In this document: piece by piece, positions 19,272 to 30,489 of the stretch
Position numbering within the stretch: the first letter of the stretch is position 1
Layout: every line of letters begins with the position of its first letter
IMG/VR virus record: IMGVR_UViG_3300022074_000239
Length of the DNA stretch: 30,489 bases
Origin: a virus
Direction: 5' to 3' (one strand)
Notes under the pieces: generated by a model
Told to the model about the DNA's origin: nothing
Seen by the model: the letters and a program-made list of their open reading frames with translations, nothing else
Database searches by the model: none
Position numbers and translations under genes: made by a program

Positions 19272-19460
19272 ATGGGGAATGCTTTAGATTATAACGACAC
19301 ACACGAGCCACGAAGATTGATAGATTGTGACAATTGTGGCAAAAGGTTTCTTAATTATCCAGATAATGTCCCAACTTGTTCTGATTGTTTGCAGAATCCG
19401 ACAATTAAGAGACAAAGATCCAGAAATTCGACTCCAGTTGCATTTTTATTCGATATTTAA
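19272..19460 (+). CDS. Small zinc-ribbon protein (62 aa)
   Basis: CDNCG...CSDC pairs and a basic tail. No SD upstream, so coding status is uncertain. Confidence 0.45.
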   Translation: MGNALDYNDTHEPRRLIDCDNCGKRFLNYPDNVPTCSDCLQNPTIKRQRSRNSTPVAFLFDI

Positions 19461-19641: not shown

Positions 19642-19669
19642 TTGAACAGCTCTGAGTATTTGTTATAAT
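19642..19669 (+). promoter_or_regulatory. Sigma70-type promoter of the tRNA gene
   Basis: TTGAAC (19642-19647), 16-nt spacer, TATAAT (19664-19669) preceded by TGT (extended -10). The tRNA starts 10 nt downstream. Confidence 0.6.
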
Positions 19670-19679
19670 TTTAGTTATT

Positions 19680-19754
19680 GCAGTAGTAGTTCAGTGGTAG
19701 AACGCCTCGTTGCCAACGAGGAAGTCGGGAGTTCGAATCTCCTCTACTGCTCCA
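19680..19754 (+). tRNA. tRNA-Gly (anticodon GCC), CCA encoded
   Basis: Cloverleaf folded by hand. Acceptor stem GCAGTAG/CTACTGC; D stem GTTC/GAAC; anticodon stem CCTCG/CGAGG with loop TTGCCAA; T stem GGGAG/CTCCT with loop TTCGAAT; discriminator T then CCA. Confidence 0.9.
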
Positions 19755-21047
19755 CTAATCTTGTTCTGGTTTATAACCCTTATCAAATGAATCAGCCATT
19801 CTCTTCTTGAGATCCATATCTTCTTTGATATAGTACTCACGAGTCACACGATCATTCTTATGTCCTAAGTGATTGGCAATATCAGTTGAACTCCAACCAA
19901 GACCAGCAAGAACTGTTGCTGATGTGTGTCTTGTATATTTAGGAGACTTGAGTGGTCTTTCAATACCAACCAACTCTTGAATCCGAATAAAGTTCTTTCT
20001 GAAATAATCTAAATTGATCAGATGTCCGAACTTATTAACAAAGAGATATTGATCTTCGTGATATACACCGAGAAGATCTAACTCCACAGCTAACTGTTGA
20101 ACATAGTCAATGACTGCATCTGGACAAGATTGTATTCTCTGAGATGAGGATTTGACCTTTGATTCATCATATACCCATCCAGTTATCTCTCCATTTTCAT
20201 TGTTAGATGCTTTCTTTGAGATAGCTTTATTGATCACAACTTCTTTATTGATGAAATCAAAGTCACTAAACTTCAAAGCCATAAGCTCTCCAGTTCTTAG
20301 ACCTAGATAAAATCCAAGACAGAATCTTCCATACCAAGTGATCGGAGGAATATTTCCAGTTGAATTTCTCATTTCAATATGAGTTCCAGTGTCTCTTGTG
20401 ACCTCGACTCTAGTCTTTGGAATGTGTCGGAGCTTCTCAAGATTTGTGTGGATCTCTTCTAGTGACCAAGTTTCATCTCGCATCTCATTAAAGATCCTCT
20501 CATCTCTCTCTTGTTGCTCTTGAGTTCTTCTTTCAAGTTTGACATTTGCTAGGGGATTAGCATCGATCTGATTCATTGTTCTTGCTAGATCAAGCAGAGT
20601 CCTCAGTTCTGTCTTGTAGTTCTGAATTGATGCTGGTTTCAATCCTCGATCTTTTAATCTTTTGAGGTATTTATACATCATCGAACTTGTTATATCTTCG
20701 AGCTTTATATCCCAAAGACCTATTTCTTTCCAGAATTTTATTGATGCGTTGATCTGTGCTTTATTAACAACAGACACTTGTCTCTCAGCTTTGAGCCAGT
20801 GAGTCAATGCAAACTCTCCAACAGTCATTGCATCTTCTTTTGTCACGAGCTTTAGAGAGTCTCTAGTGTTAAGATCATCAACAATCTTCTTGCTAAAACG
20901 ATCAGCTTCAGCTTTTGTCTTCTGAACTTTGCCATTCTTAACTTGTTTAACTCCATCTTTGTCAAAGACCACATATCTTGGTCTCCAACCAATAGATCCA
21001 GATTTATAATTTATCTTCTGGCTTCGATATACTTTTGCTTCTTTCAT
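19755..21047 (-). CDS. int: Tyrosine integrase
   Basis: The C-terminus carries ...YTRHTSATVLAG...ANHLGHKNDRVTREYY (R-H-R-Y type boxes). Start moved to ATG 21047 (MKEAKVYRSQ...), which follows AAGGAGA. The track's N-terminal extension is non-coding repeat DNA. The TAG stop abuts the tRNA CCA end. Confidence 0.9.
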   Translation of the reverse strand: MKEAKVYRSQKINYKSGSIGWRPRYVVFDKDGVKQVKNGKVQKTKAEADRFSKKIVDDLNTRDSLKLVTKEDAMTVGEFALTHWLKAERQVSVVNKAQINASIKFWKEIGLWDIKLEDITSSMMYKYLKRLKDRGLKPASIQNYKTELRTLLDLARTMNQIDANPLANVKLERRTQEQQERDERIFNEMRDETWSLEEIHTNLEKLRHIPKTRVEVTRDTGTHIEMRNSTGNIPPITWYGRFCLGFYLGLRTGELMALKFSDFDFINKEVVINKAISKKASNNENGEITGWVYDESKVKSSSQRIQSCPDAVIDYVQQLAVELDLLGVYHEDQYLFVNKFGHLINLDYFRKNFIRIQELVGIERPLKSPKYTRHTSATVLAGLGWSSTDIANHLGHKNDRVTREYYIKEDMDLKKRMADSFDKGYKPEQD

Positions 21048-21096
21048 TATTTCTCCTTTTAATAGGATAAATAACCATTGGAACTCGATGAGAAAA

Positions 21097-21128
21097 ATGC
21101 ACACGAATGCACACAAACTGCACACAGA
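21097..21128 (+). repeat. Three tandem TGCACAC(A/G)(A/G)A repeats upstream of int
   Basis: ATGCACACGA, ATGCACACAA, (AC), TGCACACAGA at 10-12-bp spacing. Confidence 0.8.
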
Positions 21129-21201
21129 CTTTGAGAACTGTGAGAAGTATGAGACATAAGATAAACAATTGACCAATAAATCACTGGCAATTTATAATTA
21201 T

Positions 21202-21265
21202 GCAAGAGTGTTAGTAGGAAAGAATCCCTTGCCAACGAGAGTCTCTCGGTTAAATTCTCAAGAGC
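21202..21265 (+). other. Degenerate tRNA-Gly-like segment / candidate attP core
   Basis: TTGCCAACGAG (21229-21239) is identical to the anticodon loop plus 3' stem of the phage tRNA (19710-19720). The flanks align loosely with the D-arm and T-arm (GCAaGAGTg.TT.AGT.GG.A.GAA..CC; AGTC..GGTTaAAtTCTC). Confidence 0.35.
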
Positions 21266-21374
21266 TCGTGTGCAGTGATCTTTCCCAAAAACCCATCTGT
21301 TCTTGGTTAATATCATTAATTTATATTATAACGAGAAAATTCCGAGAAGCTCGTGGTTAATAAAAACACCTAAA

Positions 21375-21396
21375 ATGCACACAGAATGCACACAGA
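21375..21396 (+). repeat. Perfect tandem 11-mer ATGCACACAGA x2
   Basis: Read directly. Same motif and orientation as at 21097-21128. One inverted copy (GTGTGCA) lies at 21268-21274. Confidence 0.85.
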
Positions 21397-21527
21397 TTTT
21401 CAGTTTATAAGAAAAACCCTAAGAGAATCAACGCATTTTGATGATGGCTGATCACAATAATATTGATCTGAATCTTCGATATGTTTTAAGATCGAATGAC
21501 AAGACTTGCATCTGTACTTGTCGGAGT

Positions 21528-21857
21528 TCAACCTTTTCTTCTTCTTTCTGGAAATAAGTCACGCACCTTTCGATTGTTGTGCAGTCCTTTTCTTTGAGCT
21601 GGGATAGTTCCACCCCAGACACCCTCTGAACAATAGTTTTTAATCGCATAAGCAAGACATTCAGCTCTGACTGGACATTGCAGACAGATGTCGATTGCTT
21701 GTTTGTATTCCTTGTTTAAGGATCTACCTTTTAGATCTCTTTCCATAATGAATAGGGAAGTGTCACTTGATACACAAGCTCCTTGCTCTTTCCATTGATA
21801 TTCTGGATCTGAGATCAATTGTTTGACTTCAGACAATGTCAGATGATCATTTGTCAT
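21528..21857 (-). CDS. whiB: WhiB-like transcription factor
   Basis: Cys-Xn-Cys-X2-Cys-X5-Cys (GACV...DICLQCPVRAEC) plus GVWGG and a basic tail. I prefer ATG 21857 over the track's TTG 21917; neither has a clear SD. Confidence 0.8.
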   Translation of the reverse strand: MTNDHLTLSEVKQLISDPEYQWKEQGACVSSDTSLFIMERDLKGRSLNKEYKQAIDICLQCPVRAECLAYAIKNYCSEGVWGGTIPAQRKGLHNNRKVRDLFPERRRKG

Positions 21858-24969: not shown

Positions 24970-25352
24970 TATAAATCTCCCTCAGTCTGTTTTCTCTTCT
25001 TATCACGATCAAGTTTCAGAATGGTCTGACCAATTTTTTTCTCCCAATCTGGTAGGGACACAGTCCCATCAACTTCATCGATCCACGAACAATCGTGCAA
25101 TGCTTTATATATCTGATCACCATCTAAATCCAGAGCCATAATGCTTGGGAGATGGTCTTTTGTGACTTGTAGCTTTCCAGACATAAGGATTCCTTTTCCA
25201 TCTGGGAAGTCAGTTATTGATATAGACCACAGTCTCACTAGAGCTCCTATGGTCTCATTAATTGTGATCCCAAGTGTTTTTGCTATGTGGATCACTTCAA
25301 ATTTGTTGAATATCCTTGAATCAAGTTGAAACCAAATATCTCTCTTCGCCAT
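24969..25352 (-). CDS. Hypothetical early protein, weakly replisome-organiser-like N-terminus
   Basis: MAKRDIWFQLDSRIFNKFEVIHIAKTLG...GALVRLW resembles the W-x-K/Q-L-D...F start of phage replication organiser proteins. Weak. Confidence 0.3.
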   Translation of the reverse strand: MAKRDIWFQLDSRIFNKFEVIHIAKTLGITINETIGALVRLWSISITDFPDGKGILMSGKLQVTKDHLPSIMALDLDGDQIYKALHDCSWIDEVDGTVSLPDWEKKIGQTILKLDRDKKRKQTEGDL

Positions 25353-25540
25353 TATTGATCACCTCTGATCAACGACATAAGAACAGATTTTTCAACCCTT
25401 AAAGGTTTAAGTTTGGTTGATGATCCAGTCGGTACAGCTTGAAGCTGTCCAGTATCAATCAACCGATAAGTTGTAGCTTTGCTCCAGCCAGTGAGTTCAA
25501 CAATCTCCTTGACTGAGAGCAACAATTTGCTGTCTTGCAT
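25352..25540 (-). CDS. HTH_17 / excisionase-family DNA-binding protein (Xis- or Cro-like)
   Basis: 62 aa with LSVKEIVELTGWSKATTYRLIDTGQLQAV. It is the first gene of the early operon and has an AGAGGA RBS. Confidence 0.75.
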   Translation of the reverse strand: MQDSKLLLSVKEIVELTGWSKATTYRLIDTGQLQAVPTGSSTKLKPLRVEKSVLMSLIRGDQ

Positions 25541-25794: not shown

Positions 25795-27162
25795 ATGAGC
25801 AAAGAAATAATGAACAACGATTCTGAGAAGCAGAGCTTGTTTGCATATGATATTGATGCAAACTATCGTGATCTATTCTTTTCATTAAAAGACAAGAAAG
25901 TCAGAAGTCTATTTCAAAAGAAGTGGGACTCTGTTTTATATACTGGACAGACTGGTGGCTTCTTAAATACTTTTCAGATCCATATGGATAAAGACATTAT
26001 GTTTCCAGAGCATAAGTTCATTCAAGATGACTTCAAGGTTGCTCATATAAATAATTTTTTTAATAGCATTCCAAACTCTGATCCAGATCCATATGTTGAG
26101 CAGAATCTTATTGATTTGAGAAAGTCCACACTTGCTGAAGCAATATTTGTTGGAACTCTTAGTTCAGAGGATCTATTTAGACCATCAGCTTTCTGGAGTT
26201 ATGATCTTGGACAGAATTTAGCTGAAAAGGGGATTGCTAAGAAATTGAAGACTGATGTCTTTTATATAACTGCAATCGTATTCCAACCAAATCAAAGTGT
26301 TCAGTTTGTTTGTTTTGAGACAGTTTATTCTTATGCACAATTAAAAAAACTAGCAAAGAATCTTGATCAACCATTTGGAGAATCATTGTTTGGACTTGAT
26401 AAAAGAAAAAACAATTTTATTGCTCATATAGATCAGCTCAATGGATTTTTGTTGTTGTTGAATGATGATGACACTGCAATATGGAGTGCCGATAGAATTG
26501 AAGCTACTGAGATAATTGATAGATATATTTTTATAAGAAAATTTTGTGCAAACCTTTCTCATCATCACTTATCAACTGAATTAGCTAGAAAAGGAATTGC
26601 AACAGATCACAAAAGACTTGCTTATTGGGAGAAGTCTGAATCTAAGACACCAGCATTTGTGAAAGATCAGAATTTATTTAAAGCATTGATCAAGGTATTA
26701 GCAGAAAGATCATTTGCTTTGTTTGAATATTATTTGAGGGATTCAGTGGGAGAAGATCTTGTCCCATTGCATAAGATTGAGACTTGGATCAGAGAATTTG
26801 TATTATTTGGAAGAGATTCATCATTGATCGACATTCCAGAGTTTATAGATAATTTTATTTATTTTGATGATGGGGAAAAGAAGAACTCAGTCAAGAAAGA
26901 GTATGAACAAGTCTTGATGAAAACCAAACTTGATAAGAGTCTCAGAGAGAATATCAATATCTGGTCGGCTAGAGATTTGGATGATTCACCAGTACAGATC
27001 ATTCAGTTCACAAATATGCTTGGACAAATGTCTGATGCTGATGTTGTTGAGTGGACAGAGGATTTATATCAAGATGATCAAGACAAATATGAAGTGTTTA
27101 AACTTTGGAAGTTCTTAAATAAAAGAATTGGGGAGTTCCAAGAATTAGAGCCCCCCTTTTAA
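25795..27162 (+). CDS. Repressor-position protein with internal XRE-like HTH and SSB-tip-like C-terminus (455 aa)
   Basis: The only large plus-strand gene, divergent from the early operon. Residues ~244-305 (nt 26524-26709) read IFIRKFCANLSHHHLSTELARKGIATDHKRLAYWEKSESKTPAFV, matching an XRE HTH pattern. Ends ...ELEPPF*. The N-terminal 240 aa and C-terminal 150 aa are unrecognised. Confidence 0.5.
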   Translation: MSKEIMNNDSEKQSLFAYDIDANYRDLFFSLKDKKVRSLFQKKWDSVLYTGQTGGFLNTFQIHMDKDIMFPEHKFIQDDFKVAHINNFFNSIPNSDPDPYVEQNLIDLRKSTLAEAIFVGTLSSEDLFRPSAFWSYDLGQNLAEKGIAKKLKTDVFYITAIVFQPNQSVQFVCFETVYSYAQLKKLAKNLDQPFGESLFGLDKRKNNFIAHIDQLNGFLLLLNDDDTAIWSADRIEATEIIDRYIFIRKFCANLSHHHLSTELARKGIATDHKRLAYWEKSESKTPAFVKDQNLFKALIKVLAERSFALFEYYLRDSVGEDLVPLHKIETWIREFVLFGRDSSLIDIPEFIDNFIYFDDGEKKNSVKKEYEQVLMKTKLDKSLRENINIWSARDLDDSPVQIIQFTNMLGQMSDADVVEWTEDLYQDDQDKYEVFKLWKFLNKRIGEFQELEPPF

Positions 27163-29789: not shown

Positions 29790-30374
29790 TTAATTAATCG
29801 TATATTTTTGATTGCACTTCCTACAAAAGAAGCCACCACCAATGTTCACTCGATCATTCTTTTGATCAAGATCCTCTTTTGGTTTGTGATCATAATCAAT
29901 CACATTGATCCAAACTTCATCACCTTTGAGAAGAGCATCTCGGATCACCTTATATGTTCTCAAATAGTTATTTCGAGAAGCACCAACCCAGCCAAACTCT
30001 TTGATCTGATTGTTTGTTTGATTGTCACCGATAATGACACATCCACTGGAACTTTTCGCACTATTGCCACTATGGATCAAGACATATGTGTATTCTGCAC
30101 CAGAATAACCTTTCACATCTTGAAGCTCCAGCATTCCTTTGTGATACTCATCACCATATCTTTTCAAATAACGAGAATGAAACCCACCAACTGCACGAAA
30201 CTTGATCTGATAACGACCATCAGCAAATCTTGTGATGTGTTTGACTTTCTTTTCTCGATATGGATCTTCTACTGTATAAGCCAAAAAATCCTTTGATCCA
30301 TCTTCATTGATCTTTGATAAGATCCCAGAAGTTGAATCTTTTGTTGAGCTAAATCTTAATAATTCGATTTCCAT
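29790..30374 (-). CDS. DUF5675-like protein (candidate cell-wall-active enzyme)
   Basis: 194 aa with ...TSGILS...YTVEDPYREKKV...ADGRYQI...VLIHSGNSAKSSSGCVIIG, matching the DUF5675 signature IH.GN....S.GC... Its start lies inside the terminal overlap. Confidence 0.55.
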   Translation of the reverse strand: MEIELLRFSSTKDSTSGILSKINEDGSKDFLAYTVEDPYREKKVKHITRFADGRYQIKFRAVGGFHSRYLKRYGDEYHKGMLELQDVKGYSGAEYTYVLIHSGNSAKSSSGCVIIGDNQTNNQIKEFGWVGASRNNYLRTYKVIRDALLKGDEVWINVIDYDHKPKEDLDQKNDRVNIGGGFFCRKCNQKYTIN

Positions 30375-30489
30375 TATGCCTCCGAATACTCTATGTTGTT
30401 TTTAATATCTTTGAATAAAGACTTTGGTCTTCTTCTGTGGATCGTATTAAATAAAGATCCAGTTCCTCTTTGCATTGATGCCAAGTTTG
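30363..30489. repeat. Terminal overlap copy 2 (identical to 1-127)
   Basis: Same 127 nt as the window start. It carries the ATG of the 29790-30374 gene and the 3' end of the 12-749 gene. Confidence 0.95.

Follow-up and report, generated by a model that had tools for sequence, protein, structure and literature searches.

The DNA considered here, referred to as the window, is the whole 30,489-base stretch of the IMG/VR virus record IMGVR_UViG_3300022074_000239. Our subject is the spacer separating two of its minus-strand genes, whiB and int, the latter encoding a tyrosine integrase (Int). The spacer holds clusters of a short repeat on either side of a sequence related to a tRNA-Gly gene, an organization that an initial annotation, made from the window alone, had likened to attP, the phage attachment site. 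Because the window carries a 127-nucleotide direct repeat at its ends (1–127 = 30363–30489), and because contigs of 30,331–30,545 bp carry the same integrase, the window is read as a complete circular assembly of a phage genome of about 30,362 bp. A single 60,825-bp contig (L004), which also has this integrase, is about twice the genome length with the same genes and is read as an assembly dimer rather than a host contig. The principal features of the locus are the following.

19680..19754, plus strand: complete tRNA-Gly(GCC) gene, convergent with int and abutting the int stop codon (ARAGORN, Rfam, cloverleaf fold)
19755..21047, minus strand: int, 430-residue tyrosine integrase (PF00589, PF13102; phrog_1 integrase, E=4e-41)
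21097..21128, minus strand: int-proximal arm, a tandem array of three putative arm-type Int sites at 10–11-bp intervals, word TGTGTGCA on the int strand (from sequence)
21229..21235, plus strand: TTGCCAA, the tRNA-Gly(GCC) anticodon loop and proposed 7-bp strand-exchange (overlap) region, the sole center block invariant in 13 of 13 lineages
21236..21280, plus strand: decayed remnant of a tRNA-Gly 3' half, with a T-loop trace, GGTTAAATTC versus GGTTCGAATC (comparison with the intact half in lineages L015, L030, and L047)
21268..21274, plus strand: the repeat word, present once in inverted orientation with its start 39 bp from TTGGCAA, which is TTGCCAA in int orientation (from sequence)
21375..21396, minus strand: whiB-side arm of putative arm-type Int sites, a perfect 11-mer, TCTGTGTGCAT on the int strand, present twice in tandem at an 11-bp interval (from sequence)
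21528..21857, minus strand: gene for a WhiB-like transcription factor, the last identified early-operon gene upstream of the putative attachment site (PF02467, E=2e-16)

Putative repeat arms and core of the whiB–int spacer

On the plus strand, TGCACAC begins at 21098, 21108, and 21119, and ATGCACACAGA occurs twice within 21375–21396. Across the window and both strands, TGCACAC is present in nine copies against 3.2 expected. Six of the nine lie in the 300 bp upstream of int, where about 0.03 would be expected by calculation. The three-copy cluster is 100 bp from the central 11-mer TTGCCAACGAG, and the 11-mer is about 135 bp from the two-copy cluster. The clusters, the inverted copy, and these distances (given earlier as about 100 bp and 137 bp) are all as the initial annotation had described them. 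Its picture of a spacer of about 480 bp between whiB and int requires one amendment: the flanking genes were named correctly, but the interval is not all noncoding, as 21400–21531 encodes a conserved 43-residue protein. The repeat-bounded element fills nearly all of the true intergenic region, about 21048–21399.

A protein search yielded 41 Int homologs (52–99% identity), whose loci were obtained via contig look-ups and collection scans. Thirteen distinct Int lineages (52–84% identical), the window included, were aligned over the whiB–int spacer (alignment A2); the lineage counts given below refer to this set. Three IMG/VR contigs, L001–L003, are near-identical to the window and uninformative for the comparison. 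Mean sequence identity over the spacer is 59%, and a single architecture is common to all 13 lineages: repeats, the invariant TTGCCAA, and repeats again, at fixed spacing, with a repeat word that varies. Measured from TTGGCAA, the two tandem copies on the whiB side begin at about 159 and 148 bp (the window matches most lineages), and the two to four tandem copies on the int side begin at about 109, 120, and 130 bp (the window is as in almost all). In int orientation, TTGGCAA lies 169–219 bp upstream of the int start. This shared layout backs the attP reading proposed for the window.

The repeat word is specific to each lineage, examples being TGTGTGCA, TGAGGGCA, TGTGGGCA, TGGGGGCA, TGTGAGCA, TTTGGGCA, TTTGAACA, and AGTGGTCA. 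Only G4, C7, and A8 are constant across lineages. Copies within any one genome are near-identical, though the word differs among lineages, and the word was confined to the spacer in seven of seven loci checked (up to 21 kb of sequence). Fixed geometry together with a changing, internally homogeneous word is what would be expected of protein-binding sites that coevolve with a binding domain.

At the center of the spacer, TTGCCAACGAG (21229–21239) is identical to 19710–19720 in the phage tRNA-Gly(GCC) gene, that is, to the anticodon loop plus 3' stem, a correspondence already recognized in the initial annotation. One extra copy of the exact 11-mer occurs in the window, and 0.28 matches with at most one mismatch are expected. 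The annotation's own warning that the match is near chance level holds for the 11-mer taken alone, but relatives reveal true homology. In the L015-type, L030-type, and L047 centers, TTGCCAA is followed by CGAGAAGGTCGAGGGTTCGAATCCCTTCTACCGCTCCA (tRNA sense), which together make up a perfect 45-nucleotide tRNA-Gly(GCC) 3' half, from the anticodon loop to CCA. This half is identical in the three lineages, whose integrases are only 70–79% identical. Because three lineages hold the intact half at the center, the 11-mer of the window reads as a true, decayed tRNA remnant and not as a coincidence.

In the window and nine other lineages, what remains of the tRNA half is TTGCCAA with a few flanking bases. 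The core match of the window is 12 bp (21229–21240) against the relatives' tRNA half and 11 bp against the phage's own tRNA. Sequence comparison indicates that the remnant is unable to form a T arm or an acceptor strand. No cloverleaf was detected in the window center (21200–21285), where ARAGORN finds a tRNA at 19680–19754 only, and an Rfam scan of the window spacer returned no tRNA-clan match at E<=10; the L015 center gives a weak one. These results bear out the proposals that the core is a decayed tRNA-Gly and that its flanks could not rebuild a tRNA. The core is judged too short for rebuilding by reference to the half deduced from relatives, not to a real attB, the bacterial attachment site.

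The inverted copy of the repeat word is associated with core decay. Of the nine decayed-core lineages scored in full, eight have their own word, inverted, at the 39-bp position, as does L027; L018 and the three intact-core lineages have none there. The inverted copy occupies the place held by the acceptor strand in the tRNA half of the intact-core relatives. Read in this manner, the lineages may show an evolutionary series: an intact tRNA half, a decayed half, and then a new, putative inverted Int site in the freed space. In mycobacteriophages, the anticodon loop is the usual location of the core shared by attP and attB (PMC10865867).

Two further observations concern the center. D-arm-like sequence lies on the int-side flank of TTGCCAA (21200–21228 in the window), reading CAGTGGTAGAA in L030 and AGTGTTAGTAGGAAAGAA in the window, and the L047 spacer is similar. 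An entire tRNA gene may have given rise to the ancestral attachment site, with a -10 box taking the place of the gene's acceptor 5' strand. In addition, a motif, CCCAAAAACCCA (TGGGTTTTTGG on the int strand), is kept in most lineages at 21284–21295, between the decayed half and an int-sense -10-like element described below.

The integrase and the phage-borne tRNA-Gly

Three domains are predicted in the structure model of Int: N-terminal (three strands and one helix), core-binding (SAM-like), and catalytic. R251, R373, H396, and Y405/Y406, in motif positions that we assign to the active site, are invariant in 20 homologs. Foldseek matches the full-length model to Tn1549 Int and to lambda Int (1z1b, E=8e-7, 422 aligned columns). 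In the predicted model, residues 5–64 form the three strands and helix with pLDDT (predicted local distance difference test) scores of 82–91. The arm-binding domains of lambda and Tn916 have this strand-strand-strand-helix topology.

The most variable part of Int is the N-terminus, residues 1–62, and two cases connect it to the repeats. The L030 Int (P0022) is a mosaic, with 73% identity to L044 over the N-terminal 62 residues and 79% identity to L015 over the remainder. The L030 repeat word follows the N-domain, being the word of L044, and its intact core follows the rest, being the core of L015. Likewise, all three lineages with the word TGTGAGCA have F at Int residue 38, even though one of them, L045, otherwise has its nearest relative in L028, whose word is different. 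The pattern suggests that the repeat word tracks the Int N-terminal domain, and we infer that Int binds the repeats via that domain. A Mantel-type correlation of repeat-word similarity with the N-domain or with the rest of Int did not discriminate between the two, as both correlate and phylogeny confounds them. Separately, P0002, a 464-residue Int homolog on a 1.8-kb ENA contig, is 84% identical and has a 34-residue C-terminal extension, which may come from loss of the stop codon at the point where, in the window, the tRNA abuts int.

Beyond int lies the second component of the system. The tRNA-Gly(GCC) of the window scores 72 bits with the Rfam tRNA model, against a threshold of 29. A full tRNA-Gly(GCC) is present just beyond int in nine decayed-core lineages (the window, L013, L044, L045/L039, L028, L029, L032, L037, and L018), and these nine are every decayed-core lineage for which downstream sequence is available. 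The gene is on either strand, 0–670 bp beyond int, and the tRNAs are of several sequence types with pairing kept. Such varied types and positions suggest repeated acquisition or replacement, in more than one event. The tRNA carried is always of the isotype and anticodon from which the attachment site originated, and no other tRNA is carried. A tRNA gene was not detected in the sequence recovered from the three intact-core lineages (about 21 of 30 kb for the L015 type). The state of the core and the presence of a tRNA gene are thus concordant in 12 of 12 scorable lineages (Fisher's exact p = 1/220 by calculation, phylogeny ignored). The suggestion that the intact tRNA-Gly compensates for a disrupted host copy gains support from this concordance and from mycobacteriophage precedent (PMC10865867).

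Promoter-like elements and neighboring genes

Additional features lie in and around the spacer.

19642..19669, plus strand: promoter-like site (TTGAAC, 16 nt, TG-TATAAT) with its end 10 nt upstream of the tRNA gene (agrees with the consensus at 10 of 12 positions, pattern only)
21059..21316, minus strand: 85-codon open frame, which begins 81 bp ahead of the core, runs through it and through the int-side repeats, and has its stop 11 nt upstream of the int ATG
21169..21198, plus strand: near-consensus promoter-like element (TTGACC, 18 nt, TATAAT) running from the int-side arm toward the core, in tRNA sense (11 of 12 consensus matches)
21325..21330, minus strand: -10-like TATAAT, proposed as a promoter in int sense and separated by 8 nt from the open-frame ATG (pattern only)
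21400..21531, minus strand: gene for a 43-residue four-cysteine protein (CxxC, 17 residues, C, 7 residues, C), MNSDKYRCKSCHSILKHIEDSDQYYCDQPSSKCVDSLRVFLIN, conserved in 13 of 13 lineages

The site at 19642–19669 would allow separate transcription of the tRNA. Within the spacer, the tRNA-sense element at 21169–21198 is the best-conserved block. By pattern, 11 of the 13 lineages have the element with an 18-nucleotide spacer and a -10 ending 30–31 nucleotides before TTGCCAA, nine of them with exact TTGACC. The 100%-conserved block 21165–21200 had also been considered as an int-sense TATAAA plus start codon; that assignment was dropped, as the tRNA-sense element fits far better. A palindrome, ATAAATCA/TGATTTAT, lies between the hexamers of the element in most lineages.

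Facing this element is the int-sense -10-like sequence. Pattern matching finds TAnAnT followed 5–9 nucleotides on by ATG or GTG in 12 of the 13 lineages, with the start 74–92 nucleotides (mostly 81) before the core. The frame is open across the core in every lineage (in L030 it is a different frame), and in 11 it reaches to about 25 nucleotides from the int start or overlaps it. Dinucleotide shuffles attain the observed length in 0.4–7.7% of cases per lineage. Because codon periodicity is not seen in the lineage alignment, the peptide of the 85-codon frame appears not to be selected itself. Rather, the frame looks like a leaderless upstream open reading frame (ORF) coupled to, and translated into, int. 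The 85-residue and 63-residue spacer ORFs were rejected as conventional protein genes, as neither has family matches and the former has no codon periodicity.

The two promoter-like elements face one another across the core at fixed, conserved distances, and it is possible, though we hold the idea only tentatively, that the attachment site acts as a two-way transcriptional switch. If so, Int would be made from the circular phage only and would be turned off upon integration, as in a split operon. After integration, transcription from the tRNA-sense element would leave attR, the right-hand junction, and enter the displaced tRNA half and downstream host genes; genes severed from the tRNA promoter might regain expression in this way.

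The 43-residue protein gene overlaps the whiB stop codon and ends 3 nucleotides before the first repeat, bounding the putative attachment site on the whiB side. Its conservation by codon position is 0.74, 0.84, and 0.66, which shows codon periodicity. No family could be assigned (best phrog E=0.05); the protein might be a recombination directionality factor or a regulator. No terminator-like site was found between whiB and int. The first gene of the early operon, at 25352–25540 on the minus strand, encodes a 62-residue HTH_17 protein with weak excisionase/Cox-like matches (phrog_66, E=4e-4), making it a candidate excisionase or switch protein. Divergent from it, at 25795–27162, is a 455-residue gene with no family match. 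Near the other end of the module, a 62-residue cysteine-rich ORF (CDNCGK...CSDC) at 19272–19460 on the plus strand is oriented opposite to its neighbors; it is conserved beside int or the tRNA in several lineages (L006, L045, and L047). Finally, ARAGORN reports a "tmRNA" with the tag (E)DKTKG(E/Q)APF just upstream of whiB in L013 (1931–2148) and L045 (1949–2193). This assignment, which overlaps a predicted protein gene, is probably spurious.

The probable attachment site, its alternatives, and predicted tRNA-dependent lysogeny

We consider it very probable that the repeat-flanked spacer, about 21097–21396, is attP, the attachment site of a temperate integration module in the style of lambda and L5. 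We also think it probable that this attP derives from half a tRNA-Gly gene, that it has become too decayed to repair a cut host tRNA, and that the phage carries a replacement tRNA. The notion is as follows. The N-terminal domain of Int would bind the TGTGTGCA-type repeats, two on the whiB side, one inverted near the center, and three on the int side. Strand exchange would occur within TTGCCAA, in the anticodon loop of a host tRNA-Gly(GCC) gene. With an ancestral attP that contained the whole tRNA 3' half, integration would have rebuilt the host gene. In the lineage of the window, only a 12-bp match to that half is left. The host tRNA-Gly(GCC) would then be disrupted at attL, the left-hand junction, once the phage had integrated, and the phage tRNA-Gly(GCC) at 19680–19754, with its own promoter-like site, would replace it: a case of tRNA-dependent lysogeny. 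Integration would also cut int from the early operon, the int-sense promoter-like element, and the open frame, all of which lie across the core; the separation from the early operon had been suggested in the initial annotation. That the phage integrates at all we infer because Int is intact and conserved and the site is visibly constrained.

Several results weigh against this interpretation. A search with the Int profile through one genome each for 185,579 species revealed no prophage with this Int, and the exact 45-nucleotide tRNA half had no match in the same genomes. In IMG/VR, the half matched just one contig, already in the comparison set. No attB, attL, or attR was found. Contigs with the exact Int or WhiB included no lysogen junctions; every contig read is in the free-phage arrangement. 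Three contigs that begin near the core (L010–L012) were rejected as junctions, being ordinary breaks of a circular assembly, and the 60.8-kb contig was rejected as a host junction on account of the dimer reading given above. At the site itself, the flanks of TTGCCAA in the 13 lineages have no conserved inverted core-type sites, and inverted repeats only sometimes. On the protein side, the N-domain of Int alone has no significant Foldseek or Pfam match. Finally, the three intact-core lineages are mutually closest in the core-binding and catalytic parts of Int (70–79% identity), so the correlation between core and tRNA could rest on few evolutionary events.

The absence of lysogens and prophages from everything searched fits the proposal that the module is a decaying relic, that the window phage does not integrate, and that its tRNA-Gly serves translation or counters a host tRNA-cleaving defense; anti-defense roles have been proposed for phage tRNAs (PMC10865867). 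We regard this proposal as unlikely. Int is intact and conserved in every lineage, and the repeats are kept near-perfect, with a new inverted copy having arisen in the decayed center. TTGCCAA and all spacings are invariant despite about 40% divergence, and the only tRNA carried is of the isotype and anticodon of the attachment site's origin. A different possibility is that some transcription factor, not Int, uses the repeats as operators to control int or the convergent promoter-like elements, the tRNA-like center being incidental. The whiB-side pair does lie just upstream of the int-sense -10-like element, the int-side cluster lies between that element and int, and the N-domain of Int is unconfirmed as an arm-binding fold. 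We nevertheless consider operators of this kind improbable, given the rigid spacing around a tRNA-derived 7-mer in all lineages, the absence of the word from the early-promoter region and the rest of the genome, and the way the word follows the Int N-domain (the L030 mosaic and residue 38). The layout, moreover, equals that of experimentally defined attP sites (PMC10865867).

The complete tRNA-Gly at the 3' end of int could also be proposed as the attachment site, with the spacer merely regulatory or a relic. It shares the 11-mer, and attP is commonly located at a tRNA that abuts int. This explanation strikes us as very improbable. No cluster of the repeat word surrounds the tRNA at 19680–19754, where just scattered one-mismatch matches occur; the strand of the tRNA and its distance from int vary by lineage; and three lineages with the complete spacer architecture, whose spacers contain a tRNA half, yielded no tRNA gene in the recovered sequence. 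Because place and strand vary and repeat clusters are not found nearby, the full tRNA is, on this comparison, not the attachment site.

The reading of the spacer as an attP with a decayed core has experimental precedent. tRNA-dependent lysogeny has been shown experimentally for Fionnbharth (K4), LeBron (L1), Gaia (X), and others, and BrutonGaster (CQ2) belongs to the same group of phages (Guerrero-Bustamante and Hatfull, mBio 2024, PMC10865867). These phages have a tyrosine integrase and an attP just upstream of int with arm-type sites. Their common core of 8–17 bp is such that the host tRNA is not rebuilt, and the cognate phage tRNA, which in Gaia is downstream of int, is needed for survival of the lysogen. 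Close relatives with 43–52-bp cores have no tRNA gene (PMC10865867). The module of the window is similar in its integrase type, the position of the putative attP, the putative arm sites on both sides, and its actinobacterial phage context. It is similar, too, in the short core around the anticodon loop, the cognate tRNA, and the existence of long-core relatives without a tRNA gene. It differs in its predicted target, tRNA-Gly(GCC), a tRNA absent from the tRNA-dependent cases tabulated in PMC10865867, and in its integrase, which belongs to another family. The phages also differ, being uncultured, marine or estuarine, about 30 kb in length and 38% G+C, and known from sequence alone.

Three other systems provide partial parallels. 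Mycobacteriophage L5 targets a tRNA-Gly gene, has arm-type sites P1–P7 and an attP upstream of int, and uses a common core of about 43 bp that rebuilds the tRNA. The comparison with L5 drawn in the initial annotation survives for the layout and the tRNA isotype: the heterobivalent logic is lambda-like, with pairs of arm sites flanking a core that overlaps a tRNA-Gly gene, and attP is beside int. It does not extend to the long core that L5 keeps, to the number and orientation of arm sites, or to the integrase, as the window Int has no detectable similarity to Mycobacterium phage integrases at E<=1e-5. With the lambda Int/attP intasome (PDB 1z1b, 5j0n), the window shares a three-domain integrase and tandem arm sites about 100–160 bp from a 7-bp overlap; in contrast, lambda attB is outside tRNA genes, lambda has no compensating gene, and the N-domain match of the window Int is unconfirmed when that domain is taken alone. 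In phage P2, the attachment site reportedly lies between int and its promoter so that integration disconnects int, the split-operon control that Bertani is said to have described in 1970. The window likewise has its putative attachment site between int and a putative promoter reading into it, but here the disconnection is deduced from -10-like elements and a maintained open frame.

Regarding the phages themselves, the large terminase of the window is closest to those of actinobacteriophages (Pontimonas phage phiPsal1, 33%; Streptomyces phages, about 31%). Its relatives were recovered from metagenomes of marine and estuarine origin, Tara samples among them, and no GenBank phage matches the window at the DNA level. 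The Int of the window is present in at least 80 assembly blocks and its WhiB in 201. Phages of Ca. Actinomarinales that are 27–29 kb in length, have low G+C, and carry WhiB are on record (PMC7771536).

We predict, then, that the window is a new example of the known phenomenon of tRNA-dependent lysogeny, the new elements being the integrase family, the tRNA, and the uncultured marine phages. Experimental demonstration of the phenomenon has come from cultured actinobacteriophages only, mostly mycobacteriophages, and its discoverers ask how widespread it is (PMC10865867). If our prediction is true, the strategy is present in abundant uncultured marine phages, and it works with an unrelated integrase family and a different tRNA, tRNA-Gly(GCC). 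Both states would exist in one phage family, consistent with the proposed route in which gain of a cognate tRNA relaxes selection on the attP core (PMC10865867). There would also be a sequence rule by which phage tRNAs could be annotated as lysogeny genes rather than as codon-usage helpers. Finally, for phages that have no identified host, the attB in that host would be predicted: the anticodon loop of tRNA-Gly(GCC).

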